Virus record (IMG/VR): IMGVR_UViG_3300027628_000012 | Source of the DNA: a virus | DNA length: 64,000 bases | Strand: one strand, 5' to 3' | Part shown: one piece after another, positions 25,727 to 45,723 of the stretch | How positions within the stretch are numbered: position 1 is the first letter of the stretch | Layout: the number at the start of each line of letters is the position of its first letter | Program-made: the position numbers and the translations under genes | The notes under the pieces: model-generated | The model's database searches: none | Told to the model about the DNA's origin: nothing | The model's input: the letters and a program-made list of their open reading frames with translations, nothing else

Positions 25727-27685
25727 TTACACGCCACCTTCACGACGAGGAGGAAGTTGTGTTGGCATTGGCCTCATATCCGTTTCTGTTCCTTCCTCAG
25801 CTTGTAATTGATTATAGAACATTAAAGCGCGTTGTGCTGTAGCTTGAGGGAGCTTAGAGATAGCATTTGCCCTCTGCGCTTCCGACATGTTCATAAATTC
25901 CTGCGCAATCTTTAATGCTTCTCGGTTTTGAGTTCCACCACTACCAGAGCGTCCCTTAGGCTCTTCCCTGCGCTCCCCTTCTCCTGGGGTAGATGGTTGT
26001 CCGGTTGGTTGGTCAGATGGTTGTCCCTGCTGAGGAGTGCCCTCTTGTTGAGGATCTTCTTCAGATTCATATGCACCAGGAGCCGGTTCAGGAATTTGAG
26101 GACCGTTAGCTGGGTCAACTGGCGGCATCTGTCCTTTTTCTGCTGCTATTTGCTGCATTTTTTCATTCATATCCATTTGACTCAGTTGCAACTCGAATTG
26201 CTCTTGAAGCTTACGCAAGCGCTCAGATTGTAGCTGCTTGACAACCTTTGTAGAATCTAATCCGAGAACTTTCTCGTACATGATTTCGTCTGGAAGTTTT
26301 CCTTGTTGATTAAGGTTAATCATTAGCTGTTTTTGTTGGATGTCATCTTGCATTTTTAATTCACTAAGCTGTACTTTTACAAGCTTTTCGTTATCATCAA
26401 TGGTTTCCCATTCGCCACGAATTTCCGCTAATCGTTTAATAAGGAAATTGTTAATGTAGTGGAGTAGTTTTGTGCGGTAGGTGATGAAGTGATTCTCAAG
26501 GATACGTAAAGAGGTGGTAGAACCGGAGTAAGAGACACCGCCGAAGATAAATTCTCGTGGAACTCCCATAGCAGCAAGGATGGTTTCTTGCAGCTGTTCC
26601 AATTCAGGGACGAGAAGTAATGCTTTCCCTTGACCGCCATGTTGGATTTGTTGAATAGGGAGGGGGCTGATAATTTGATAGTTTGGATCATCAAGCTGTT
26701 TTTTTAACTCAGAGGCAAAGTCATTAGCAATATCAGCAAAATCCATTCCAGGAGAAAATTCTTGAGTTTCGTTAAAGTAATAGATACGGCGGGGCACTAT
26801 ATGTTCATAAGCCAGCGCCTCTTGAGCCTGTCGTAAAACGTTGCTATAGAGTATAAGCTTCATAGCATGGAGAACGGGGGGAGTAGCCCAAAGTCCATCA
26901 TCACCAGATTCAGAAGGCATTTGCATGTGATACACGTATTCGCTTTTCAACCTTACAAGGCCACGCTTCGCAACCGCATCCTTAAAGATTTTTGGTATCT
27001 TATCGTATTTTTCTTTCGGCTTTTGCGTTTTAATAACTCGCTTTAATTCAGGAGGGATATCATAGAAGTACATTTTCTCTCCTGATTTTGGGTCTTTATC
27101 AATCTTTAAACGGGTGAGATCAAGTCGTTGCACGCTTTTCCATACAACTTCTTTCTTCTGAATAATCTCACCTGTTTCAGGTACTCGACGCTTAACGATC
27201 TTAACGCCGGGTTCAGCAAAAACAACCATGTTACCGTATAAGAAATAGTCATAGCCGACTTCGTTCATATGAGTATATAAATCTATATCTTCACTTAAAA
27301 TCTCGTCATAGAATTTATATGTCTCACTTGGCTCTTCACTATCTGTATCATTGGTGTCTACGTCCTTTTGGTCAGCCTCTTCTGTATCATCAAGTATCCA
27401 ATCCGTGATTGGAAAGGTAGCGAGAGAACGAACAGCGGAACCAATCAAAGGGTCAAACTTGAAAAAATATCTACACCATTTAAAAATCTCTTTATAATCA
27501 TCGGGAATTTGCATATCTCCTAGTGTAAGGAAGGAGGAGCGGTACTGTTTATAAGCGTTGTTGCTCATTGTTGAGTTAGGATGAGCAACCTTTACGTGAC
27601 CGCTAGATGTTCCCGTCAATTTATCTACAAATTTAGCCATTTTCTCTTCCATTTTGGAAATATCATTTTGTTGATCTTTATCCAC
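25727..27685 (-). CDS. Probable phage portal protein
   Basis: 652 aa; DPLIGSAV, DYFLYGN, ILAAMGVPREFIFGG and coiled-coil/Gln-Pro-rich C-terminus typical of portals; lies in the terminase block. Confidence 0.7.
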   Translation of the reverse strand: MDKDQQNDISKMEEKMAKFVDKLTGTSSGHVKVAHPNSTMSNNAYKQYRSSFLTLGDMQIPDDYKEIFKWCRYFFKFDPLIGSAVRSLATFPITDWILDDTEEADQKDVDTNDTDSEEPSETYKFYDEILSEDIDLYTHMNEVGYDYFLYGNMVVFAEPGVKIVKRRVPETGEIIQKKEVVWKSVQRLDLTRLKIDKDPKSGEKMYFYDIPPELKRVIKTQKPKEKYDKIPKIFKDAVAKRGLVRLKSEYVYHMQMPSESGDDGLWATPPVLHAMKLILYSNVLRQAQEALAYEHIVPRRIYYFNETQEFSPGMDFADIANDFASELKKQLDDPNYQIISPLPIQQIQHGGQGKALLLVPELEQLQETILAAMGVPREFIFGGVSYSGSTTSLRILENHFITYRTKLLHYINNFLIKRLAEIRGEWETIDDNEKLVKVQLSELKMQDDIQQKQLMINLNQQGKLPDEIMYEKVLGLDSTKVVKQLQSERLRKLQEQFELQLSQMDMNEKMQQIAAEKGQMPPVDPANGPQIPEPAPGAYESEEDPQQEGTPQQGQPSDQPTGQPSTPGEGERREEPKGRSGSGGTQNREALKIAQEFMNMSEAQRANAISKLPQATAQRALMFYNQLQAEEGTETDMRPMPTQLPPRREGGV

Positions 27686-29573
27686 GTACTACACCTTCTT
27701 CCTTAAGCTTTTCTAAGGTATAAACTAATTCTTGATGTTTGTATTCAAGAAAGATACCAGCCATAAAGTGAGCGACTGTTGTTTCAGCTGCCATATTCGC
27801 AACGCCAGTACGGAAATCAGCATCTACAGGCTCAAGTAAACCATTTCCTAAAACTTTCTTAATGGATGTGTAAGGATCATCAACTTGTATTTGTTCAGCA
27901 TGCTCTTTCAGTACATCATCGGCAATCTCAGTAATTTGGGTAGTCATGGTGTGTTGTTGGTCAATGCCAGCTTCATCTAAAACACCTTGAGCATCACGTT
28001 CTTTCCATTTCCGTGCTAAAAAGCCATTTACACTTTTGAAGAAGTCTTTTTCAGAAGGATTGTCTTCATCATAAAGCTGATTCGATACAAAGCGAACGCC
28101 TTCATTCATTAGTTCCTCAGATACGTAAGCGGCGATATTGTCATGGAATTGAAGGAATACTTCATCTCCGTCATACGCTTTTGCTACGTCCAAGCCAAAT
28201 AGAATCTCTTCAAAAGAGAGGTTACCTTGAAATTCTTCAAATAAAATACTTTTGGAATTAACGCCTCGTATAAATTTCTCAAAGGTGAGGGGAGCCTGAT
28301 ACATCGTGTGTTCTTCTGAAGAAACGGTGTGGAGGATGGAAATCTTATTTAATGGATTTTCAGCAATACCATTACGTAACTCGAAATCTATTTCAATTTG
28401 CTTTAATAAGGCTTCAAGTTCATACCTAGCCCAATCTTCGCCATATCGTTCATTCAATACAACATCATAAGCAACAGGGTGAATATCAGGATCTTGGAAC
28501 AAGTCCAGGCTTTCTCGTTCGACTACTGGAAACTCTTCTTCAACTAGATCTTCTACAATATCTTCAAGAGAAGCAGCATCTTTTACGAAGTCGTCTTGAT
28601 CTTCATGAAACGTATCAAATGTAGCTGTCTCTTCTTCAGATGTACTAGCGGTTTGCTCTCGTGGTTTAGGAGCCTCCAGTTCCTCAGTTGTTTCTTTTGT
28701 ATGTTGTTTAAAGAAATCGATGAAAAACTGCTTGTCTTTCTTTTTAAACGCTTCATAACCTTCTTCATTCATTCGTAAGAGAGGTAATTGTTCAATTAGT
28801 TGCCCATTCCAGGTATAAACAACGCGGTCTGGTAAAAATCCTACATTGACTTCTTGATTAATTCGATGGAGACTCACATCTTCAGAACGATTCTCGTCAA
28901 ATAAATCAAAGATACTTGCTACTTTCGATAATTCATTTGGGTTAAAAAAGAAGTGACAATGTTCAAATGGTCGAATGGTATCAAAAGAAGGGTTAAGGGT
29001 GAATGTCACGTTATCTAAACCGCCGCTTGCTGTTTTCATCATACCGTCCATATGTTCAGCAGCTACTTTAACCAAGGCATCTTGTTTAGATATATAACTT
29101 GCTTCTTTTGCTTGCTGGTTATAACCACCTGCAGCTAGGAGACGTTGGGCAAAAGCTTGTTCTGCCAATTGCATTTCCATATTGATTTTATTTACTAATA
29201 AATCGCGGAAATAGTTAGCATTCTTCTTTTGAAATTCAGTACGCATATAAGGATTCATTTCATCAGTAGAGATGATTTCAAATACTTGGCCGTTAACACT
29301 GTAAATGACGTTAATGGGCGTGAAAACAATCTTCAAGTCCCTCATAATACTTTCAACCTGAGAATACGCATTATTTTCGATAGTACGATTCTTTAATTCT
29401 TGCTCTTGTTTTTTATCCTGTGACTTTTTGTAGTGAGCATTTGCAGCATAGCCACCAGCAATCGAGCCTAAAACGGAAGCAGGGTCAATGCTTAGGTTAA
29501 ATGCAACTTTCTCTGCAAAATCGCCATATATTCGATCAGCTAGTTTAACTTGTACATTTGGAATTTTAATCAA
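27678..29573 (-). CDS. Putative virion protein (631 aa), K-x-A-rich with an internal duplicated segment
   Basis: KLA, KVA, KEA, KTA motifs; LKIVFTPINVIYSVNGQVFEII resembles VNVGFLPDRVVYTWNGQLIEQL. Confidence 0.55.
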   Translation of the reverse strand: MIKIPNVQVKLADRIYGDFAEKVAFNLSIDPASVLGSIAGGYAANAHYKKSQDKKQEQELKNRTIENNAYSQVESIMRDLKIVFTPINVIYSVNGQVFEIISTDEMNPYMRTEFQKKNANYFRDLLVNKINMEMQLAEQAFAQRLLAAGGYNQQAKEASYISKQDALVKVAAEHMDGMMKTASGGLDNVTFTLNPSFDTIRPFEHCHFFFNPNELSKVASIFDLFDENRSEDVSLHRINQEVNVGFLPDRVVYTWNGQLIEQLPLLRMNEEGYEAFKKKDKQFFIDFFKQHTKETTEELEAPKPREQTASTSEEETATFDTFHEDQDDFVKDAASLEDIVEDLVEEEFPVVERESLDLFQDPDIHPVAYDVVLNERYGEDWARYELEALLKQIEIDFELRNGIAENPLNKISILHTVSSEEHTMYQAPLTFEKFIRGVNSKSILFEEFQGNLSFEEILFGLDVAKAYDGDEVFLQFHDNIAAYVSEELMNEGVRFVSNQLYDEDNPSEKDFFKSVNGFLARKWKERDAQGVLDEAGIDQQHTMTTQITEIADDVLKEHAEQIQVDDPYTSIKKVLGNGLLEPVDADFRTGVANMAAETTVAHFMAGIFLEYKHQELVYTLEKLKEEGVVRG

Positions 29574-29952: not shown

Positions 29953-31426
29953 TTTTGGGGTTCTCCTCTCGTTTGCTTTTCATAGCCGCTAATCCGGCTA
30001 ATCCTCCTCCAGCGGCAAGTAAACCGCCAGCGCCAGCCTTCAAGCGAGCGTTCGCCGTCTGTGTTTCTAAACCTTTAACTGTATCGTCTAATTCGTTTTT
30101 TGCTTGGGTTGTGTAGCTATCAAATAGACGATTTGTAAATTGTCCTTTTGAATAATCATCTTTAGCTAAATTGCCGTAGTTCTCTTCTAATAACTTAGGA
30201 ATGTTTTCATTACGCAAACGAGTAGCGGCAACATCAGCGGGATTCTGACCCTTTAATTCATCGATTTGTTTACCATATCCCTTGAAATCTCTAGCAAACT
30301 GCTTTAAGCCATTGAAAGAGGGGAGAGCTGTCTTTTCCAAATCCTCTGTCTTTTCCTGGGCAAGACGTGGGAGACCGGATAAACCCATAGGCATAGCTGA
30401 ATGCTTATCGCCAGGTCTAGGTTGATCATCTTTTCCTAACTCAATAATTACGCGAGTAGATTGGTTATCTGTATCTTTATCAGTACCATCTTTAGGGGAA
30501 CGAGGATCTTGTCCATTTAAAAGCTTTGCTGTACCTAATGAGATACCAGTAAAACCAATACCACTAGCCACAGCTTCGGGAGTCTTCTTAGCAATGCCAC
30601 CGAGCCCTTTATATACATCAAGAGAACTAGCTGATTTATTCATCGAATTATCCTCCTTCTTTTTTAGAAAACTACCTGCATGATGAAAGGTATCTTCTAG
30701 CTTCTTTTGATTATCCGGGTCAGAAGATGCGCGATCTAGGGCATGAAAACCTGAAATGCCTGCGCCGAATGCGGTACCTGTCAATCCAGCACCTACCATG
30801 TCTTTTGCGACTTGTTTCTTATTGAATAAAGGTTTCGCATTTTCTTTCTTCCGAGGAGATTTATTAGTAATAGAGGCTTTATCTCCATATAGTTGTTTCT
30901 GAATTTCTTCATCACGAACCTTTTCGTACAAAACTCTTGCTCGTGCTTCTGGATCAGTATTAGGAAAACGGGTGGAACCATCTATTGCTTTATCAACAAC
31001 GTTACGACTCTGTTCTTGCTGTAAACGACGAGATACTTCATCACGAATACGTTTTTGGATTTCAGGGTTCGTATCTACTTCTTTAACGCCATTTCCTAGA
31101 ATAGCACCTAATTGGTCAGCACCTTCACGTCCTGTTGGTTTTGGCATCATTCTTAGGTTTTGAAGAACTTTTTTACCTACTTGATAACCAAACTTTGTTT
31201 TCATGCTACCGTTACGTTTTAAGTAATTCTCGAACCCTTTTCCTGCTGCACCTATAGCACGCTTACCATTACGGAAAGCACCGCTAAAATCACCTTTAAC
31301 AGCTAATGTACCAGCGCCAGTTAGAATCGTCCCTAAAGCGGCTAATTCTACGGTGTTTTGGAGCCATGAATCTTTATAGTTTAGATTCTTATCACTACGT
31401 TTAGGTTCCCACATGTTATCAGCCAT
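29939..31426 (-). CDS. Putative virion protein with Gly/Ala-rich hydrophobic segments
   Basis: ALGTILTGAGTLAV, GAGLTGTAFGAGISG, AGAGGLLAAGGGLAGLAA; KSA and KTA motifs. Confidence 0.55.
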   Translation of the reverse strand: MADNMWEPKRSDKNLNYKDSWLQNTVELAALGTILTGAGTLAVKGDFSGAFRNGKRAIGAAGKGFENYLKRNGSMKTKFGYQVGKKVLQNLRMMPKPTGREGADQLGAILGNGVKEVDTNPEIQKRIRDEVSRRLQQEQSRNVVDKAIDGSTRFPNTDPEARARVLYEKVRDEEIQKQLYGDKASITNKSPRKKENAKPLFNKKQVAKDMVGAGLTGTAFGAGISGFHALDRASSDPDNQKKLEDTFHHAGSFLKKKEDNSMNKSASSLDVYKGLGGIAKKTPEAVASGIGFTGISLGTAKLLNGQDPRSPKDGTDKDTDNQSTRVIIELGKDDQPRPGDKHSAMPMGLSGLPRLAQEKTEDLEKTALPSFNGLKQFARDFKGYGKQIDELKGQNPADVAATRLRNENIPKLLEENYGNLAKDDYSKGQFTNRLFDSYTTQAKNELDDTVKGLETQTANARLKAGAGGLLAAGGGLAGLAAMKSKREENPKNGPS

Positions 31427-31832: not shown

Positions 31833-33449
31833 TTATCGACCATATTGGTTAAGGAAGCTTTCAGCTTCAGCATACGCCTCAATAGCTGCTTGCTTTTGAA
31901 GTTGAGCTTGCTCAAGTAAGTGAGCTGTTTTATCAACATCATACTTACTAGGATTGTTTGTTACGTTATATCCAGCAGTGTCTTGAGCTTTTGTTGATCC
32001 AGGCTGTAAGTTACCTGTTTCAGTTTTACGTTTTTCTTCATCAATGTGTTCTTCAACTTGCTTTTTAGCGTCAGTTAATGCACCGCCAACACCCTTCGCG
32101 GCAACACCGTCAGCGCCTGCAATTTTTTCTAGTTCATCAGCAGAAGCATCATGAGCTGCAATGAAAAAAGCTACTTTATCGAATAATTCTTCATTGTGCT
32201 TTCCAGCTACGATTTCATGTAGTTGGTCTTCAGAATACAGTTCTGTTGCTACCTTTACGAATGCGTCTTCCATTTCTGCTCTGCTTAAACGAGAGATGTG
32301 ATTGAATTGTTCTGCTGCTTCTTTACGTAATTCATCTTTAAATTCTTCGTTATTAGCAATGTTTAATAGTCCAGCGGCACCTGCAATTTTTAAGAAATCT
32401 TGAACAACTGATTGTTTCATGGCTTGTTTGCCTCCTTCATAATAATTACCTTTATTTTGATAACTAGCTGTTTTCGAAGCTTCTTCTTCGTCAGGGTGGG
32501 TAGCATCATAGATCTTTTTACCGCCGAATAAACTACCGGCTGCTAGACCAGTACCACCAGCTCCCCAGCCAGCTCCTCCCATTACAACTTTCTTTTTAAT
32601 GTCATCTACATTTTCATTAGCAGCTGAAGAAGCCTTTGTTGCATCAACCTGCTTCTGTCTAAGGTTTGTTAACTCTTCACCAGTGGCATTAACATTATCT
32701 GCTGCTGTAACAGCATTAGTAGTAGCTTGTGAAGCTTCTTGAGCAAGACGGTCAGCTTCAGCTTTAGCAACGCCTAATTCATTTCTAAGTTTCCAGAAGT
32801 TTTTAGTAGCGTCGCCAAATTCTTTGATCGTATCAACAGCTTTACCAATTACGCTGCCAGCTTCAAAAGCTTCTTTAGAAAACTCTTCATCATTAGCAAA
32901 TGAATCAAGAGTCTCGACTACATATTCCATACCTTCTTGCGTATATAGAGCATTAAGGTTAGCTTCATCTTCAAAAAGCTCAGTAGCCGTCTTTTGTAAT
33001 GTTTCATAGAATGAATCTTCGCTAGATAAAGCGGTTTGAAGTCGTTCTTTAGCGATTTTGTGGAGAATAGGGTCTGAATCTGAATTAGTGGAAAAATCGA
33101 TGAGTTTTGCGAAGGCACCCATTGCTGGAAGAGAGTCACTAATAACTGGAGCTGCTACTTTCTCAAACTCGTTGTATTGCTTCTCTACTTCAGCTAAATG
33201 TTCCTGGGCTGCGTGGAGTTCTTGTTCTGCTGAATCAATCGTATCATTTAGAGCTTCTACATCTTCAGGAGAAGGGGGAAGCTGTTCTTCAGCATCACTT
33301 GAATCAGCAGGTTCTGAGTTAGCTGCTTGTTCTGCCTCTATTTCCTCTGGTGGAATAGGGGGCTTGGGATCTTCTAACATAGGATCTTGATTGTCCTCAG
33401 GGATAATTTCATTAGCAATTTTCTCTAAATCTTCAAGATAGTTATCCAT
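31833..33449 (-). CDS. Putative virion/head protein (scaffold- or ejection-like), 13 K-x-A motifs
   Basis: Acidic helical protein with KIA, KVA, KTA, KEA, KQA repeats and a Gly-rich GGAGWGAGGTGLAAG segment. Confidence 0.55.
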   Translation of the reverse strand: MDNYLEDLEKIANEIIPEDNQDPMLEDPKPPIPPEEIEAEQAANSEPADSSDAEEQLPPSPEDVEALNDTIDSAEQELHAAQEHLAEVEKQYNEFEKVAAPVISDSLPAMGAFAKLIDFSTNSDSDPILHKIAKERLQTALSSEDSFYETLQKTATELFEDEANLNALYTQEGMEYVVETLDSFANDEEFSKEAFEAGSVIGKAVDTIKEFGDATKNFWKLRNELGVAKAEADRLAQEASQATTNAVTAADNVNATGEELTNLRQKQVDATKASSAANENVDDIKKKVVMGGAGWGAGGTGLAAGSLFGGKKIYDATHPDEEEASKTASYQNKGNYYEGGKQAMKQSVVQDFLKIAGAAGLLNIANNEEFKDELRKEAAEQFNHISRLSRAEMEDAFVKVATELYSEDQLHEIVAGKHNEELFDKVAFFIAAHDASADELEKIAGADGVAAKGVGGALTDAKKQVEEHIDEEKRKTETGNLQPGSTKAQDTAGYNVTNNPSKYDVDKTAHLLEQAQLQKQAAIEAYAEAESFLNQYGR

Positions 33450-37370: not shown

Positions 37371-37397
37371 AAAAAGCCCCGTCAATTGACAGGGCTT
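37371..37397 (-). terminator. Rho-independent terminator
   Basis: AAGCCC...GGGCTT stem with an A-run. Confidence 0.7.
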
Positions 37398-37410: not shown

Positions 37411-39459
37411 TTACTTACTGAATGTGATACGGTCCATTGGATCAAGGTGTTGACGAACAGGAGGTAATGATTCGTCTATGATCGCTGAAGCTGCCTCTTT
37501 ATAAAGACCATTTAATACCTCGGATGCTTCTTTTTCACGATCTTTTTTAGAATTAGCAGCCGCCGCACCACCGCCAGCCGCAGCTAAACCGGCAGCTCCT
37601 GCTAAACCAGCACCTTTACGGGATTTATCTTTACGTGCTTTAGCAGCATCATTAGCGCCTTTTAATTTTTCATGTTGATTTTTAAATTCACTTACTGAGA
37701 GGCTATTTGTTTTATTGTCATTCCATGCACGTTGCATATTTTGCGCAGTAGCCTTCTCATTAGCTCCTGTAAAGTCACGAGCACCCATTTGAGCTTTGTA
37801 TTTAGCATTTCCTAGAGCACCTTTTGCTTTGTTAAAAAGACCACCGCCAGGAGCCGCTGTTTTTTCAAGGCGTTCCATTAGTTCAGTAAATGCTACTTGT
37901 TCTTCATCATTATCACCGCCAGCATTAGCTAACGCATAACCAGCACCGCCAGCTCCTGCTAAACCAGCACCAGCTAGACCTTGAGCTTTTAACATATCGT
38001 TACGAGCTTGCTGTACGAGAGCCTGATCCATTAACTGTTGTTCATCACCTAAGTCTTTAACAGCACGATAATCTTTACCTAACGCGGTATTACCAAAATC
38101 TCGTGCTCCACTAAGTACATCTTGACCTAAGTTACGAGCTGAAACTAAAGCGTCCGCGCCACCTGCTTTAGCAGCTGCTAAAGCGTCTCCTGAATGACTT
38201 GCTAAATTTTGAGCAATATCACGAGGTCCTGCTGTTTTCTCTAAACGACCCATCAGTGATTCAAAGGCAATCTTTTGTTCATAGTTAGAAGTTTGGTTCA
38301 TTGTATTTTCCTCCTCTGGATTTTTAGATTTTTGGTAGGCGTTATATCCACCAACGCCAGCACCAGCTGCACCAAGAGCTAGACCGCCTCCTAAACGGGC
38401 GCGGTTGCGATCAACTTTCGCATTATTTACAGTTTTTTGAGCCTCTTGTGTGTATTCATAGCGTTTTTGTAAATCTCGTGGGACGTTACTAATTTCATTG
38501 AGGCGATTTTGAGCTTTGTTTACATTGTGATTAGTGAAGTTTTTAATGAAGTTTAAAGGTCCTGCAGTTTTTTCAATGGGGCTAAACAGGGGAGAGGGTG
38601 AGGCAGTTTTATCAGCACCGGCTGGAGCGTTTGATACTGAGCCAGCACCTTGTCTTTTTTGACCATCGAGACCTGTAGAAGATTCTTGATTATTGCGTTC
38701 TTCAGATAACAATTCATCCATAATACGATTATTCATACGTTTATCTTCCATCATGCCAGCCCCCATTAGTCCACCAAATAAACCAGTACCTGCTGCAATA
38801 GGAAGGGCTTTTTGCTGTGTTTCATCTCTTAATTGTTGCTCTGCTTTCATTTTCGCTTCAGCGTCTTGTAACTTAGTAAAATATTCTTCTGGGGGCATAC
38901 TAGCAAAACCATCTATAGAATTTAGATTTTCATAAGCTTTAGAAGCTTTTCTATAGTCACTACCGGTTAGCCTGCGAACACCATCAAGCATACCGGCTGT
39001 TTTAGATAACCGGTTAGCCAAATCATTGTTAGTAGCTTCTCGATCCATACGCATCTCCTCAATTTTCTGACGTAGATATTCCCTTTTTTCATCCTCAACT
39101 TCTTTTGTTATTTGCTCTTTATTAACACCATATTGATCTACATAAGCACCAAGACCACCGCCAAGTGCAAAACCTGTACCGGCACCAAGTAAACCACTAA
39201 CTCCCATTTTTACACCTGCATCTACGGCTCTATTAGCAATAGCAGCACTTTTGCCTGCTGGCGATTTTCCAATGAGAGAGAAATGAGGTTTATCACTGTT
39301 AAGTACATGTTGGAACGCGCCTAGGGCTATACCAGCTGGTAACCCGCTTTCGGCGCCTTTCATGCCATATTGTAAAGCATAGGGAAGATTCTGATCATCA
39401 GTCTCAGCTTTCTTTGAAAAGAGGGGAGAGGTTTTTTGGAATAGTTTCAATAGCGTCAC
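37411..39459 (-). CDS. Modular, polyprotein-like virion protein (682 aa) with repeated KTA plus Gly/Ala-zipper units
   Basis: At least four units of (E/S)KTA(G/A), helix and GAGLAG-type hydrophobic segment; LMGRLEKTAG resembles LMERLEKTAA. Confidence 0.6.
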   Translation of the reverse strand: MTLLKLFQKTSPLFSKKAETDDQNLPYALQYGMKGAESGLPAGIALGAFQHVLNSDKPHFSLIGKSPAGKSAAIANRAVDAGVKMGVSGLLGAGTGFALGGGLGAYVDQYGVNKEQITKEVEDEKREYLRQKIEEMRMDREATNNDLANRLSKTAGMLDGVRRLTGSDYRKASKAYENLNSIDGFASMPPEEYFTKLQDAEAKMKAEQQLRDETQQKALPIAAGTGLFGGLMGAGMMEDKRMNNRIMDELLSEERNNQESSTGLDGQKRQGAGSVSNAPAGADKTASPSPLFSPIEKTAGPLNFIKNFTNHNVNKAQNRLNEISNVPRDLQKRYEYTQEAQKTVNNAKVDRNRARLGGGLALGAAGAGVGGYNAYQKSKNPEEENTMNQTSNYEQKIAFESLMGRLEKTAGPRDIAQNLASHSGDALAAAKAGGADALVSARNLGQDVLSGARDFGNTALGKDYRAVKDLGDEQQLMDQALVQQARNDMLKAQGLAGAGLAGAGGAGYALANAGGDNDEEQVAFTELMERLEKTAAPGGGLFNKAKGALGNAKYKAQMGARDFTGANEKATAQNMQRAWNDNKTNSLSVSEFKNQHEKLKGANDAAKARKDKSRKGAGLAGAAGLAAAGGGAAAANSKKDREKEASEVLNGLYKEAASAIIDESLPPVRQHLDPMDRITFSK

Positions 39460-39530: not shown

Positions 39531-40079
39531 CTACTCTTTAGTATGGTTGTTTTCATGCATGTGATCATAAAGCTGACCAGCTGTATAAGCTCCAGCTAAC
39601 CCTAATAAGCCTGGTAACGCTTTTCCTGTAGGAGAATGTACTTTGTCGGGGAAATTACGTGTCATTTTTGCTTCACCAAATAGAGGTATGACCTTACCAT
39701 GATTAAACTGATCTAACGTCTGTTTCACTTCATAAGGATTGTTGGAAAGGTACTTTAAATCATCTGCATTTTCTTTTAGTAATCTTTCGTAGAACTCTCG
39801 TTTCTCTTCGGGAATATCATTCATCGATAGTTTGCCTCTGTATAACTTTAGCATCGTATCCCAGTTTTCACGTGACTGTTCTTTTATTGCGTTAAGTTCT
39901 AGAGCTTTCTGAACGAGCTTTCTTTGATAATTTGCATCGATAGGATATTTTAGTAGGTGTCCCGCACCAAATGCCGCACCACCTGCTCCCAACTGAGCTA
40001 ACCCTTTCGTAACATCTTCTTCTAACGAAGTTGTAGTGTCAGCAGAAAATAGAGCCATTTTATTCACCGCCCTTTGCAA
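39531..40079 (-). CDS. Putative virion protein with two Gly/Ala-rich segments
   Basis: GLAQLGAGGAAFGAG and GLLGLAGAYTAG; NKMA motif at the N-terminus. Confidence 0.55.
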   Translation of the reverse strand: MQRAVNKMALFSADTTTSLEEDVTKGLAQLGAGGAAFGAGHLLKYPIDANYQRKLVQKALELNAIKEQSRENWDTMLKLYRGKLSMNDIPEEKREFYERLLKENADDLKYLSNNPYEVKQTLDQFNHGKVIPLFGEAKMTRNFPDKVHSPTGKALPGLLGLAGAYTAGQLYDHMHENNHTKE

Positions 40080-41753: not shown

Positions 41754-44498
41754 TTACATACTATCTTTTGCATCCTCATTGAGATAAGAAAGTCCGGCAA
41801 GCCCTGGCACACCGAGAACAGCACCAGTCCCAATATTCTTTTTAGCAATGGTTTCATGGGTAGTATTGCGCTTGTGCATAGCTTCTTGAAGTGAAGATAC
41901 AGACAAATTCATATGCTCTCTAGCTTTTTCTACTTCTGATTCAGCTTGAGCAAGTGTATTCTGATCAAGATCACTATGGAACAAAGCTCGGAATTGTGCA
42001 TTTTTATCACTAAAATTTCTAGTTGCTTCTTCTGCATTTTGCTTTAAAGTAGCGAGTACGCCATCTAATGACTTCAACTCTTGTCTAGCTTTACCGTTAA
42101 AAAATCCGGCTTCTTTCTCTATTTCAGTCTTTTTTTTTTCGTCTTGAAAAGAAGAGGCATATACATACAAGCCATCTAACTGTGTAAGGGCTTCTTTAAT
42201 TAGAGAAGGTTTTACTAGATAACTTGTTGTATTTAAAAGTTGCTTACGATTAAAGTCAATTAGATCACTAGCTTTTTTCTCGATAACCGGTTTAAACTCT
42301 GCCACCTTTTTAAACGGTTCTGCACCTTTATATAAATATTTTCCGTCCATTACATTTTCAGCTAATTTATCTAAGCGATACTTCATATTAAGAAGAGCTG
42401 ATAATTCATGCCATTCAGATCCATTTAATCGAGTCGCTACTTTTTCCATTTCATAGGCAGTAGTTTTGGCTTGCTTCATTCCAAGAAAATCTCCGACGTT
42501 ATGTGCTGCGTTAATTGTTCCAGGAGCAAGGTTTCCTAATACGGAAGAAATACCGCCAGCAACAGTATCCTCCATAATAGGAGTGAAGTTGCTTGAATTA
42601 AGCATGGAATTAGCAAGACCTTTCATTTTCTTTTTCACTTTTGAGTTAGCTTGATCTGACGGGGCAGCTTGACTTGCTCGTTCGGCACTCGTGATGTTAA
42701 AGGTAGCACTACGCCCGTTACGATCTGTGACTTCAAAAAATTTAGCTTGCGTTCTGTAGTCAAATCCTAGTGAACCTAGAAGAGACTGCGCTTGTTGGCG
42801 TGATAACCCGTCCTGATAGCGTTTTTCTAGCTTAGTAGCATCGACACCATCTGAACCTTTGTCTGCCTTCGCGTATGTCCATTTAACTGCATAAGTCTTA
42901 GGATTACGGTCTTTCTTGACAATAAGAGTAGCTTTGTTTTGTCCTTCATAAGCGGCTGTTTTAGCTAAAGGTCCTTCATTAAATAATCCATCTGGGCGTG
43001 TATAATAACCTTTGATGTTCTTTTCTGCTTTGAAGAAAGGAAAGCTCTCATGAATTACAACGTAATCTTTTGTATGAAAAAGCATATTCTTAGCTAGCCT
43101 TGCGTCTTCCATATCCTTTGCATTGTCTACGATATAGTTCTGAACTTCTTCGTAAGACATATGCATTGGTTCTGTCATTGTAGGATCTTTTGTAATAACT
43201 ATACTGAAGCGTGCGTTGCCGAAACCTGCTATAACAGAGTTTGAATAGCGTCCAGCTGATACTTCTTTGCACTCATACACATCAGAGAGGAGGGAGTTAG
43301 CAGTACGTGCTCGATATGAAGGGTCAGACATACGTTCTCGGACAGATAAAACGATACCGTCATTCAGTACGTCACGCATCCATGTGTTCTCGATGATAAA
43401 CGGATTATACACAGTACCAGAGTCTTTCTCTAATATATACATAGGACCAACTTCAAGGGATTTTGCATGTGTAGTAGGCAATTCAACACTATCAGGTTGA
43501 CGTGTGCTTGCCATGAAAGCTTCATTGGATTTTAAGATGTGGTAGCCGCCTTTTGTATCTAGTACTAAAGCGCCTAAACGATTTGAGGTATAGTTTGGAG
43601 TGTTTTTGAACCAAGATTCGAAATTGCGATAGACTCGCCCTACACGAAATTCTACTCGGTTATCTTCGTAAAGAGGGAAAGCAATGTTATTTCCGCTAGC
43701 AGCACGGTGAACATTAAACAGCTTCTCATTTTCTAGCTGCATGAGGTCTCGTTTGATTTTAGCAGCATCTAACGTTTCAGTTTGGTCAGCAGCTGTCTTT
43801 TCAAGTTCTTCCCACGCTTCTTTTTCAGCTTGTTTAAAAATATGTTTCTCGTATTCTTCTATTTGCTCACTCGTAAACACTTTTACATCTGCAATTTTCT
43901 CCATGACTTCGTGAAAACCATCAAGGATATCCATATCACTAGCCATACGCATGATACGAGTTTCATCAACGGTACCGAAACCTGGTCCACGATATTCGTC
44001 ATCATACCTAACATCTTTGTTTCGATGATTATCTCGAACCTGCATAATAGAACCTAAGAACCCATTGTTATATTGAATATCATCAAAGTCTGCCAGTTCC
44101 ATCGTTTGAGTTCCTTCAGCACCTTCGTTTTCCTCTTCTTTCGCTTTATGCTCAATTGCATTAATGACACGTCGAAGTTTGCTGTAATCGTAACTAATCT
44201 CTTGATCACCCATTCGAATCGTATCAAAAGGAAGGAGTGTCTTATCTGAAATAATAAAAGGAATGTATAGCTTCACTCCGTAAGCAGTTAGCTCAATCGC
44301 ACCAAAACCATTCTTCACATTATTACTTAAATCAGCATCCTCTTCATCGATTCGAAGATAAGGCTTTATTTTTACTACGTCTCTCCATGATCCAAGTGCA
44401 TCATTCATCATGCTTACAAGATACTCTTCAATTGCTGCAGGAGAACTATTTTTTAGAATCATTGCGCCAGAAGCGGTTTTTACCATGCCTTTTGACAT
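41754..44498 (-). CDS. Large putative virion protein (914 aa), K-x-A-rich, C-terminal Gly-rich hydrophobic segment
   Basis: VKTAS, EKIA, KQA, EKEA, EKTAA, EKVA and others; ends with GTGAVLGVPGLAGLSYL. Confidence 0.55.
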   Translation of the reverse strand: MSKGMVKTASGAMILKNSSPAAIEEYLVSMMNDALGSWRDVVKIKPYLRIDEEDADLSNNVKNGFGAIELTAYGVKLYIPFIISDKTLLPFDTIRMGDQEISYDYSKLRRVINAIEHKAKEEENEGAEGTQTMELADFDDIQYNNGFLGSIMQVRDNHRNKDVRYDDEYRGPGFGTVDETRIMRMASDMDILDGFHEVMEKIADVKVFTSEQIEEYEKHIFKQAEKEAWEELEKTAADQTETLDAAKIKRDLMQLENEKLFNVHRAASGNNIAFPLYEDNRVEFRVGRVYRNFESWFKNTPNYTSNRLGALVLDTKGGYHILKSNEAFMASTRQPDSVELPTTHAKSLEVGPMYILEKDSGTVYNPFIIENTWMRDVLNDGIVLSVRERMSDPSYRARTANSLLSDVYECKEVSAGRYSNSVIAGFGNARFSIVITKDPTMTEPMHMSYEEVQNYIVDNAKDMEDARLAKNMLFHTKDYVVIHESFPFFKAEKNIKGYYTRPDGLFNEGPLAKTAAYEGQNKATLIVKKDRNPKTYAVKWTYAKADKGSDGVDATKLEKRYQDGLSRQQAQSLLGSLGFDYRTQAKFFEVTDRNGRSATFNITSAERASQAAPSDQANSKVKKKMKGLANSMLNSSNFTPIMEDTVAGGISSVLGNLAPGTINAAHNVGDFLGMKQAKTTAYEMEKVATRLNGSEWHELSALLNMKYRLDKLAENVMDGKYLYKGAEPFKKVAEFKPVIEKKASDLIDFNRKQLLNTTSYLVKPSLIKEALTQLDGLYVYASSFQDEKKKTEIEKEAGFFNGKARQELKSLDGVLATLKQNAEEATRNFSDKNAQFRALFHSDLDQNTLAQAESEVEKAREHMNLSVSSLQEAMHKRNTTHETIAKKNIGTGAVLGVPGLAGLSYLNEDAKDSM

Positions 44499-45283: not shown

Positions 45284-45331
45284 GCTATTTCTATAATAAA
45301 AAGTGTTATAAGAATAATAGAGAGAAATAAA

Positions 45332-45402
45332 AAATCTATAGCTCAATTGGCAGAGCAATCAGTATAACTGGTGTGTTAAAGGTTCGAGTCCTTTTGGATT
45401 TT
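45332..45402 (+). tRNA. tRNA-like element with an aberrant anticodon arm (identity not assignable)
   Basis: Acceptor AAATCTA/TGGATTT, D arm GCTC-AATTGGCA-GAGC, T arm AAAGG-TTCGAGT-CCTTT; anticodon arm ATCAG-TATAA-CTGGT has a 5-nt loop; no encoded CCA. Confidence 0.7.
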
Positions 45403-45426
45403 TTTTATTTATTTTGGAGGTGTGGA

Positions 45427-45723
45427 ATGGATAAGAGGGAAGAGCTATTAAACTTATTCGAAAGAGCCTTAGAGGAAATGAAACAAAATTGGTCAACCGT
45501 TTTAATGAGAGGAGATAAGATACTTAAATCCGATCTTCCTAAGTATGGTCCAATTTATCATGAGTTAGTTCTAACAAGGATTTTATTAGAACAAGGAGGC
45601 GAAGTTTCAAAAGTTATTAGACATAAAAATGTGAACATCTTCAATCCTTACGAATCTTTTTTTATGGATTTATTTGAAACAAATAGTTTCCCGATTTTAT
45701 TTGAATTGTATGAGTATGAGTGA
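45427..45723 (+). CDS. Hypothetical protein
   Basis: ATG 45427 after GGAGGTG. Confidence 0.6.
   Translation: MDKREELLNLFERALEEMKQNWSTVLMRGDKILKSDLPKYGPIYHELVLTRILLEQGGEVSKVIRHKNVNIFNPYESFFMDLFETNSFPILFELYEYE

Follow-up and report, generated by a model that had tools for sequence, protein, structure and literature searches.

Architecture of the 682-aa protein

A gene encoding a 682-amino acid (aa) protein was analysed in IMG/VR virus record IMGVR_UViG_3300027628_000012, a stretch of 64,000 nt that is referred to here as the window. The window consists of phage DNA with a G+C content of ~38%, in which two plus-strand blocks carry replication and recombination functions (helicase, RuvC-like resolvase, SbcCD-like nuclease, DnaJ and primase). 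The gene of interest (37411-39459, minus strand) is located in the minus-strand block between them (18.6-44.5 kb), which holds the genes for the 914-, 265-, 255-, 182-, 682- and 394-aa proteins, the large terminase (phrog_675, E 3e-58), the 377-, 538-, 495- and 631-aa proteins, the portal (phrog_16240, E 1e-9) and, by the portal gene, a single-chain beta-beta' RNA polymerase of 2241 aa. The 265- and 255-aa genes, identified by eye without a family search, are taken here to encode a sigma factor and a PhoH-like ATPase, respectively, and the 682-aa gene sits between the PhoH-like and terminase genes. Pfam and PHROGs scans of the 682-aa protein and eight neighbours yielded nothing informative except for the portal, leaving the protein without a Pfam or PHROG family, including families of structural proteins.

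The protein was found to consist of a leader, an N-terminal region (M0), four consecutive units (M1 to M4, each assigned to a unit type as described below) and a C-terminal tail, and its gene is directly followed by a terminator:

39406..39459, minus strand: N-terminal leader, aa 1-18, ending in K-K-A
39040..39405, minus strand: M0, aa 19-140, with two Gly-zipper stretches (aa 38-55 and 85-107)
38608..39039, minus strand: M1 (type E), aa 141-284, with delimiter R-L-S-K-T-A-G at K153, a helical hairpin and a zipper at aa 218-237
38275..38607, minus strand: M2 (type A), aa 285-395, with delimiter I-E-K-T-A-G-P at K297 and a zipper at aa 356-376
37900..38274, minus strand: M3 (type B), aa 396-520, with delimiter L-M-G-R-L-E-K-T-A-G-P at K408 and a zipper at aa 492-515
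37525..37899, minus strand: M4 (type D), aa 521-645, with delimiter L-M-E-R-L-E-K-T-A-A-P at K533 and a zipper at aa 616-637
37414..37524, minus strand: C-terminal tail, aa 646-682, opening with E-K-E-A-S, followed by a degenerate delimiter L-Y-K-E-A-A
37374..37397, minus strand: strong intrinsic terminator directly 3' of the gene, with a 10-bp stem (six GC pairs) and a T run

The general plan of a unit comprises an amphipathic helix ending in L-(M/L)-x-R-L-E-K-T-A, a polar helical hairpin of 50-75 residues and a Gly/Ala zipper helix of ~22 residues. In M1 to M4, the opening helix ends in (L/I)-(E/S)-K-T-A-(G/A), and the unit closes with K or R and an uncharged Gly/Ala stretch of 20-24 residues, followed by a charged linker. 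An earlier inspection of the DNA letters, made without database searches (the sequence-only reading), had described units of 80-130 aa starting at KTA(G/A). All sequence strings that it quoted were present in the protein, and the four starts were located at residues 153, 297, 408 and 533 (nt 39003, 38571, 38238 and 37863), while the size range had to be revised to 111-144 aa. The true start of the gene is probably the TTG at 39450, not the listed GTG at 39459, as this TTG is preceded at 6 nt by an AGGTGA ribosome-binding site and an 84%-identical homologue (P0003) starts at the equivalent codon; a start at this TTG would yield a protein of 679 aa.

To assess the relationship between the units, 47 family proteins were cut at their delimiters, and the resulting 176 units were clustered into types, after which the type profiles were compared by hhalign. 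Consistent with the repeats proposed in the sequence-only reading, the modules aligned significantly in profile-profile comparison, in Smith-Waterman alignment and with a unit hidden Markov model (HMM), all with clean reversed or shuffled controls. Type D (M4) matched type A (M2) with a probability of 98.4% (score 86.5, 85 columns), type E (M1) with 97.3% (score 71.1, 92 columns) and type B (M3) with 97.2% (score 67.6, 52 columns), while types A and E matched each other with 97.0% (score 63.4, 101 columns). Scores in these four comparisons did not exceed 20 with reversed or column-shuffled targets, compared with 63-87 observed. Smith-Waterman Z-scores were 8.8 for M3 and M4 and 6.3 for M2 and M3, and the pairwise local alignments were colinear from delimiter through zipper. 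Furthermore, the type D HMM matched all four units of the protein (independent E-values, i-E, of 4e-8, 3e-8, 7e-7 and 1e-57) and zero reversed decoys. The same HMM did not match M0, which is not homologous to the repeated units.

These results bear on the possibility that the repeats are an artefact of low complexity, in which Gly/Ala runs and charged helices would be aligned by their composition and K-T-A would recur by chance. Such an artefact could account for the low identity of the unit interiors (<20%) and for the fact that repetition at the DNA level is limited to zipper and delimiter codons. Nevertheless, it conflicts with the reversed and column-shuffled controls, the HMM free of decoy matches, the colinearity of the alignments and the counts of the delimiter motif, which are 10- to 40-fold above shuffled expectation. 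Tested against these controls, the artefact was not supported and has next to no probability. The units are homologous, and the protein represents a statistically solid modular repeat protein.

The zippers were the second feature common to the units. The protein contains five or six uncharged stretches of 18-24 residues, with 3-14 instances of small-xxx-small spacing per zipper stretch; Gly and Ala make up 50-82% of the four C-terminal zipper stretches and 33% of aa 38-55. Across the family, 233 zipper stretches exhibited a median length of 22 residues, and 82% had K or R directly upstream. The net charge of the flanking eight residues averaged +1.27 before and -0.05 after the zipper, a polarity that was the same in every unit. 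Since a polytopic protein would need alternating orientations, this identical polarity is compatible with separate single-pass pieces or with helices that are not constitutively embedded in the membrane.

A further element, R-Q-G-A-G-S-V-S-N-A-P-A-G-x-D-K-T-A, closes M1 (aa 269-286, nt 38602-38655) and occurs once per protein. It was present as a single copy in 22 of the 24 relatives checked, whatever their unit order, and is the best conserved element after the tail; it might serve as a protease-docking or partner-binding loop. Structure prediction with AlphaFold2 (15 sequences) returned an all-helical model with a mean predicted local distance difference test (pLDDT) score of 43, in which confidence was confined to residues 160-215 and 555-615, corresponding to the M1 and M4 spacers. 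In the ESM Atlas, whose own model of the protein has a pLDDT of 0.46, only unnamed viral clusters below 0.9 were found.

Unit shuffling and the delimiter motif

An exhaustive search of 1.84 billion representatives recovered only 40 clusters, and all 47 relatives are either uncultured or found in Priestia megaterium assemblies. These relatives comprise proteins with 84-57% identity from Priestia megaterium assemblies, encoded on contigs of 175-180 kb, and metagenomic proteins. No match was obtained by tblastn and megablast against 50,697 phage records, by tblastn against 72,556 plasmids or by a single-sequence scan of IMG/VR, and no relative was found in the GTDB species-representative genomes. 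An alignment-based scan of IMG/VR identified three loci, among which a 121.7-kb contig (G001, ~80% complete) exhibits the same gene order around a 766-aa orthologue. By terminase, the nearest cultured phage is Salmonella phage Arash (27% identity), which was found to encode no comparable protein, its gp4 having just one glycine-rich hydrophobic region. The protein belongs to a small family that is linked to head-packaging genes and represents a new large-phage lineage.

Among the 47 relatives, units vary in number, type and order, with the delimiter, leader and tail remaining fixed. The protein under study has the architecture M0-E-A-B-D-tail. In close relatives, type C takes the place of B (M0-E-A-C-D-tail) or B occurs three to four times (e.g. 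M0-E-A-B-B-B-D-tail), and more distant relatives display arrangements such as A-M0-E-D-E-D-tail, A-C-D-tail, C-C-C-tail and D-D-D-D-D-tail. Type C has only the 16-column delimiter in common with the other types. As a result, the number of units ranges from two to seven and protein length from ~310 to 959 aa. The tail of ~35 residues, present in 41 of 47 relatives, is the most conserved part and contains most of the invariant columns of the family (L652, K654, E655, A656, A657, P666, D673, I678 and F680 in the 15-sequence alignment). On one 44,411-bp ENA contig, the family is represented by two open reading frames (ORFs; P0011 and P0010), one ending and the other starting at a delimiter, which reflects either a frameshift or the fission of the gene where two units meet.

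The delimiter consensus reads as acidic residues followed by A-(F/Y)-x-(E/D)-L-(M/L)-x-R-L-E-K-T-A-(G/A)-(P/E). It was examined in 96 distinct contexts, chosen by [LIMF] at position -2, K at 0, [TSVIA] at +1 and A at +2. The free positions were strongly conserved, with L at -6 (75 contexts), R at -3 (64) and E at -1 (73), and at the positions subject to selection, L was found at -2 in 82 and T at +1 in 71. In the 15-sequence alignment, which is independent of this selection, K533 and A535 are invariant and E296, K297 and A299 nearly so.

The full delimiter (M-x-x-L-x-x-R-L-E-K-T-A) stands directly at the N-terminus of 25 of the 47 relatives, where it resembles a cleavable leader, and 38 relatives possess some K-x-A within their first 22 residues. 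A short N-terminal peptide ending in the motif is thus common to otherwise different putative cargo proteins, the arrangement by which capsid-targeting leaders of the T4 type (at most 20 residues) are recognised in sequence. In addition, many delimiters are preceded by a second K-T-A at a distance of ~11 residues, and a pair of this kind also marks the start of the tail. The presence of delimiters at the N-terminus and in doubled form speaks against a repeat that is purely structural.

The motif is confined to proteins of the terminase-portal block. Among the 80 genes of the window, [LIMF]-x-K-[TVISM]-A was matched 33 times, and 25 of these matches fall in six minus-strand proteins (631-, 495-, 538-, 377-, 682- and 914-aa), for each of which ~0.2 matches are expected by shuffling. 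The RNA polymerase and terminase contain no more matches than shuffling predicts. Similarly, 25 of 35 matches of a related pattern in the 136 ORFs of contig G001 were located in five syntenic proteins. The family of the 914-aa protein, otherwise unrelated to the 682-aa protein, starts with M-x-K-x-x-x-K-T-A, and its K-x-A positions, both N-terminal and at the borders of several domains, are invariant, with a small residue next to K and A. A distribution restricted in this way would be expected if a processing or targeting code were read within the prohead, as is the case in T4 and phiKZ/SPN3US.

Positions 1-20000 of contig G001 contain large plus-strand ORFs (490, 999, 417, 1143, 676 and 528 aa) with almost no K-x-A motif. 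PHROGs analysis of ten ORFs from this left end (the 999-, 1143- and 676-aa ORFs not being among them) gave one marginal match, of a 191-aa ORF to phrog_985 'virion structural protein' (E 8.7e-4). These plus-strand ORFs are presumably tail genes, in which case K-x-A would not be characteristic of structural genes in general.

The same motif could be read by a partner without being cut, the delimiter acting as a docking helix for the portal, the capsid inner face, a chaperone or the RNA polymerase, and the intact chain acting as a multivalent tether or matrix whose zippers self-associate. The 8-9-residue core with its hydrophobic face (L at -6, M/L at -5, L at -2 and A at +2) is typical of linear motifs in which a helix binds a groove, AlphaFold models continuous helices through some delimiters (e.g. 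residues 519-534), and no protease was identified. However, a docking helix would not readily explain why the motif stands at the extreme N-terminus in so many relatives and is often doubled 11 residues apart, resembling excised leader or spacer peptides, nor why K and A, followed by a small residue, do not vary in proteins that are otherwise unrelated. A single polytopic chain is likewise disfavoured by the charge polarity, which is identical in all zippers, and we consider an uncleaved protein improbable.

The gene context is also relevant to the proposal that the protein is a late membrane protein absent from the virion and unrelated to the capsid interior, involved in lysis control, superinfection exclusion or a membrane-bound assembly platform. 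The uncharged stretches of membrane-spanning length (18-24 residues) and the absence of a match to structural-protein families would agree with such a function. Conversely, the protein has no signal peptide or strongly hydrophobic anchor and is, over its 682 aa, mostly charged helix, its gene lies between those of PhoH and the terminase, its motif is common only to terminase- and portal-flanking proteins, and synteny is kept in the distant 121.7-kb relative. A function of this kind is considered very unlikely. Two specific classes were also rejected: a holin or pinholin, on account of the size (682 aa versus <~150 aa), the head-packaging block and the absence of an endolysin nearby, and a tape-measure protein, given the absence of a Pfam or PHROG match, the position between PhoH and terminase and the threefold variation in family length.

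Zipper units in neighbouring proteins

According to the sequence-only reading, similar single units close the 495-, 538- and 914-aa proteins. This was corroborated for the 495-aa protein, and a weaker unit was detected in the 538-aa protein, though in mid-protein and not at its end, whereas the 914-aa protein scored no better than its reversed sequence:

29960..30358, minus strand: unit at the C-terminus of the 495-aa protein, aa 357-489 (HMM i-E 1.4e-6; Z 7.0 against M4; hhalign probability 82%)
32457..33017, minus strand: weaker internal unit of the 538-aa protein, aa 145-331, with a zipper at aa 288-310 (HMM i-E 1.2e-4; hhalign probability 90%, 115 columns)
41757..42143, minus strand: unit-like C-terminal add-on of the 914-aa protein, aa 786-914, with K-E-A-G, a long helical hairpin and a zipper at aa 888-907

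No sequence homology between the add-on of the 914-aa protein and the units was detected, and the resemblance lies in layout only (K-x-A, helical hairpin, basic residue and zipper). The add-on starts at a nearly invariant K788 site. It was present in 13 of 19 homologues, in one of which it is doubled, and absent from six; five of these six end just after the K788 site and one just before it. These differences represent the gain and loss of a unit on an otherwise unrelated protein.

Several other properties of the 914-aa protein were recorded. Its gene (41754-44498) has its own strong terminator (41730-47), and its AlphaFold model (pLDDT 65) contains a well-predicted beta-rich core (aa 260-620). 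The protein was considered as a candidate major capsid protein, but no match to the HK97 fold was obtained. At an E-value of 1e-3 or better, this model had no PDB match, its sole BFVD match at that threshold being an unnamed protein of an uncultured phage (E 3e-12), and the VIA rows for the protein cover only the C-terminal helical hairpin. Assignment as an HtrA-like protease was rejected, as the Foldseek rows were weak (E 0.02-0.3, TM ≤0.16) and no conserved His-Asp-Ser was found among the invariant columns.

The 182-aa protein encoded directly upstream of the 682-aa gene (39531-40079) is not homologous to the units; it has a Gly-zipper at each end (aa 26-43 and 154-171) and K-M-A near its start. 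The 631-aa protein (27678-29573), whose gene immediately precedes that of the portal, has a beta-rich segment of ~60 residues that is duplicated within the chain (~aa 80-145 and 255-310), and its counterpart in contig G001 has a full delimiter, L-E-R-L-E-K-T-A. Elsewhere in the window, ARAGORN predicted a tRNA-Tyr with the unusual anticodon ATA (45331-45403), which overlaps the start of a listed ORF (45373-45723).

A candidate head cargo precursor and its known counterparts

Based on the sequence comparisons described above, the 682-aa protein may be a head-internal cargo precursor of a large Priestia/Bacillus phage that is processed at its delimiters according to a Lys-x-Ala code, a reading that we hold with slightly less than even confidence. 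The polyprotein-like character put forward in the sequence-only reading gained support from the exchangeable units, the leader-like and doubled delimiters, the confinement of the motif and the zipper polarity; its interpretation as a whole was supported in part.

We infer cleavage, virion location, ejection and pore formation, the virion location from the gene context, and the following course of events may be envisaged. Loading of the precursor into the prohead would depend on the leader, the delimiter helices or the conserved tail. The delimiter would be the recognition site of the phage capsid-maturation protease and perhaps also a prohead-targeting peptide, and cuts at K-x-A inside the prohead would generate polypeptides of ~110-135 residues with a single zipper, in addition to short spacer peptides. 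The zipper pieces would stay soluble next to the DNA, exit via the tail at infection and self-associate in the host membrane through their small-xxx-small faces. Assembled in the membrane, they may aid the passage of the DNA, and possibly of the RNA polymerase encoded by the portal-adjacent gene. Regarding the proposed cleavage site, for which the K|T and A|G bonds are the candidates, the HK97 protease cuts after Lys and before Ser at its capsid maturation site, and a cut after the Lys of K-x-A would therefore not be without precedent.

Several observations weigh against such a cargo precursor. No match to Pfam S78 or S77 capsid proteases was obtained in contig G001 (~80% complete), and nothing protease-like was recognised in the window. 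Searches of the same contig with the Phage_capsid and Gp23 Pfam families did not reveal a major capsid protein. The helical delimiter of 8-9 residues is longer than the three-residue sites of T4 and phiKZ and would also fit a docking helix that is not cleaved. The zippers are marginally hydrophobic (mean Kyte-Doolittle values of 0.65-1.34) and did not match Pfam glycine-zipper families (e.g. Gly-zipper_Omp, Gly-zipper_YMGG and Rick_17kDa_Anti) at an E-value of 0.1 or better. Moreover, the AlphaFold model of the protein is of low confidence and poor, and the gene split between P0011 and P0010 could be a frameshift. Low hydrophobicity would nonetheless fit peptides that have to remain in solution next to the packaged DNA and would enter the membrane solely in oligomeric form. 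Furthermore, a PDB sequence search with two capsid or protease candidates from contig G001 gave no match, and no capsid, protease or tail gene was recognisable in the 64-kb window.

A role in the prohead that ends before packaging was also considered. As a core or scaffold protein, the 682-aa protein would tether the prohead to the membrane by its zippers, cleavage at the delimiters by the protease would release the prohead and clear its interior, and the resulting fragments would be expelled before packaging instead of reaching the next host. A parallel exists in T4, in which prohead assembly takes place on the membrane and cleavage by gp21 is followed by detachment; the T4 core proteins gp22, gp67 and gp68 are broken down into numerous fragments that exit the head (PMC9026906). 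The density of the motif in helical, charged proteins of the block (538- and 377-aa) is also in line with a scaffold. However, a scaffold that determines size would hardly be expected to range in length from ~310 to 959 aa and to contain two to seven units whose type and order change. Modular turnover this fast is seen more typically in proteins that are injected or face the host, and the conserved C-terminal tail would have no obvious role. On balance, a scaffold function seems unlikely.

The cargo precursor reading can be extended to a more specific proposal, to which we assign a low probability, namely that the protein is a genuine polyprotein of a Gram-positive phage from which a Lys-x-Ala-specific capsid protease would release a variable repertoire of glycine-zipper peptides. 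Together with the units of the neighbouring proteins, these peptides would form a post-ejection pore for the DNA and the 250-kDa single-chain RNA polymerase, and the shuffling of units would tune this pore to different hosts.

To our knowledge, the only cleavage codes worked out for complex phage heads are the Glu-specific ones of T4, phiKZ and their relatives, and the passage of DNA and large enzymes across the membrane by large tailed phages of Gram-positive hosts is poorly understood. If the delimiters are cut sites, they would represent a new protease specificity, the protein would be the first clear phage head precursor made of tandem, exchangeable units, and its products would provide a set of glycine-zipper polypeptides of ~12-15 kDa for direct membrane tests. 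The nine-residue delimiter and the 35-residue tail are also candidate tags for loading foreign proteins into capsids, similar to the T4 capsid-targeting sequence.

Glycine-zipper helices such as TMD2 of pinholin S21-68, the N-terminus of VacA and the N-terminal helix of phiX174 H comprise ~20 uncharged residues with Gly, Ala or Ser four apart and pack into oligomeric pores. The zippers described here exhibit the same spacing, combined with a Gly and Ala content of 50-82% and low hydrophobicity. Polyvalent phage proteins, reportedly described by Iyer et al. in 2017, are said to string enzymatic domains together; as in the 682-aa protein, swappable modules occur in one chain, although the modules observed here are small helical zipper units without a recognisable enzyme.

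The ejection proteins of T7 (gp14/15/16), P22 (gp7/16/20) and N4, in N4 together with the giant virion RNA polymerase, have the role that is proposed here: they are stored in the head, exit via the tail and build a conduit across the envelope (PMC13434306). These podovirus ejectosome proteins are separate gene products acting on Gram-negative envelopes, as opposed to a delimiter-punctuated string, and no sequence or fold relation to the 682-aa protein was detected.

The inner-body and ejection proteins of phiKZ, 201phi2-1 and SPN3US (processed by gp175 or gp245; PMC10052503, PMC5694885) belong to large phages in which numerous head proteins are ejected, RNA polymerase subunits among them. Their cargo is comparable to the 682-aa protein in forming paralogous families with several cleavage sites per propeptide, and gp245 of SPN3US cuts ejection-protein propeptides at several sites (PMC10052503). 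In these phages, however, the motif is (A/S/G)-x-E and its cleavage mostly removes long N-terminal propeptides, whereas in the 682-aa protein tandem units would be separated. There is no homology between the two systems, and the RNA polymerase of the window is a single beta-beta' chain whose motif count does not exceed that of shuffled sequence.

The gp21 protease of T4 acts at a motif of three residues, dividing core proteins into several fragments, and the entry of internal proteins into the head is directed by a leader of 10 residues (PMC9026906). The T4 core and internal proteins (gp22, gp67, gp68, IPI-III and Alt) resemble the 682-aa protein in several respects: a short motif is common to a set of head-interior proteins, with multiple cuts per protein (here, candidate sites), the internal proteins carry a short N-terminal leader ending in the motif, and the cargo is poorly conserved and fast-evolving. 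The T4 motif is (L/I)-x-E, cut after Glu, compared with L-E-K-T-A within a nine-residue helix in the 682-aa protein. Unlike the latter, the T4 proteins contain neither strings of homologous units nor glycine-zipper helices, and no sequence similarity between them was found. Protease-processed head cargo is a known kind of logic and the most likely one for the 682-aa protein; what is new is the layout, in which tandem homologous glycine-zipper units are punctuated by a nine-residue Lys-x-Ala delimiter and framed by a fixed leader and tail.

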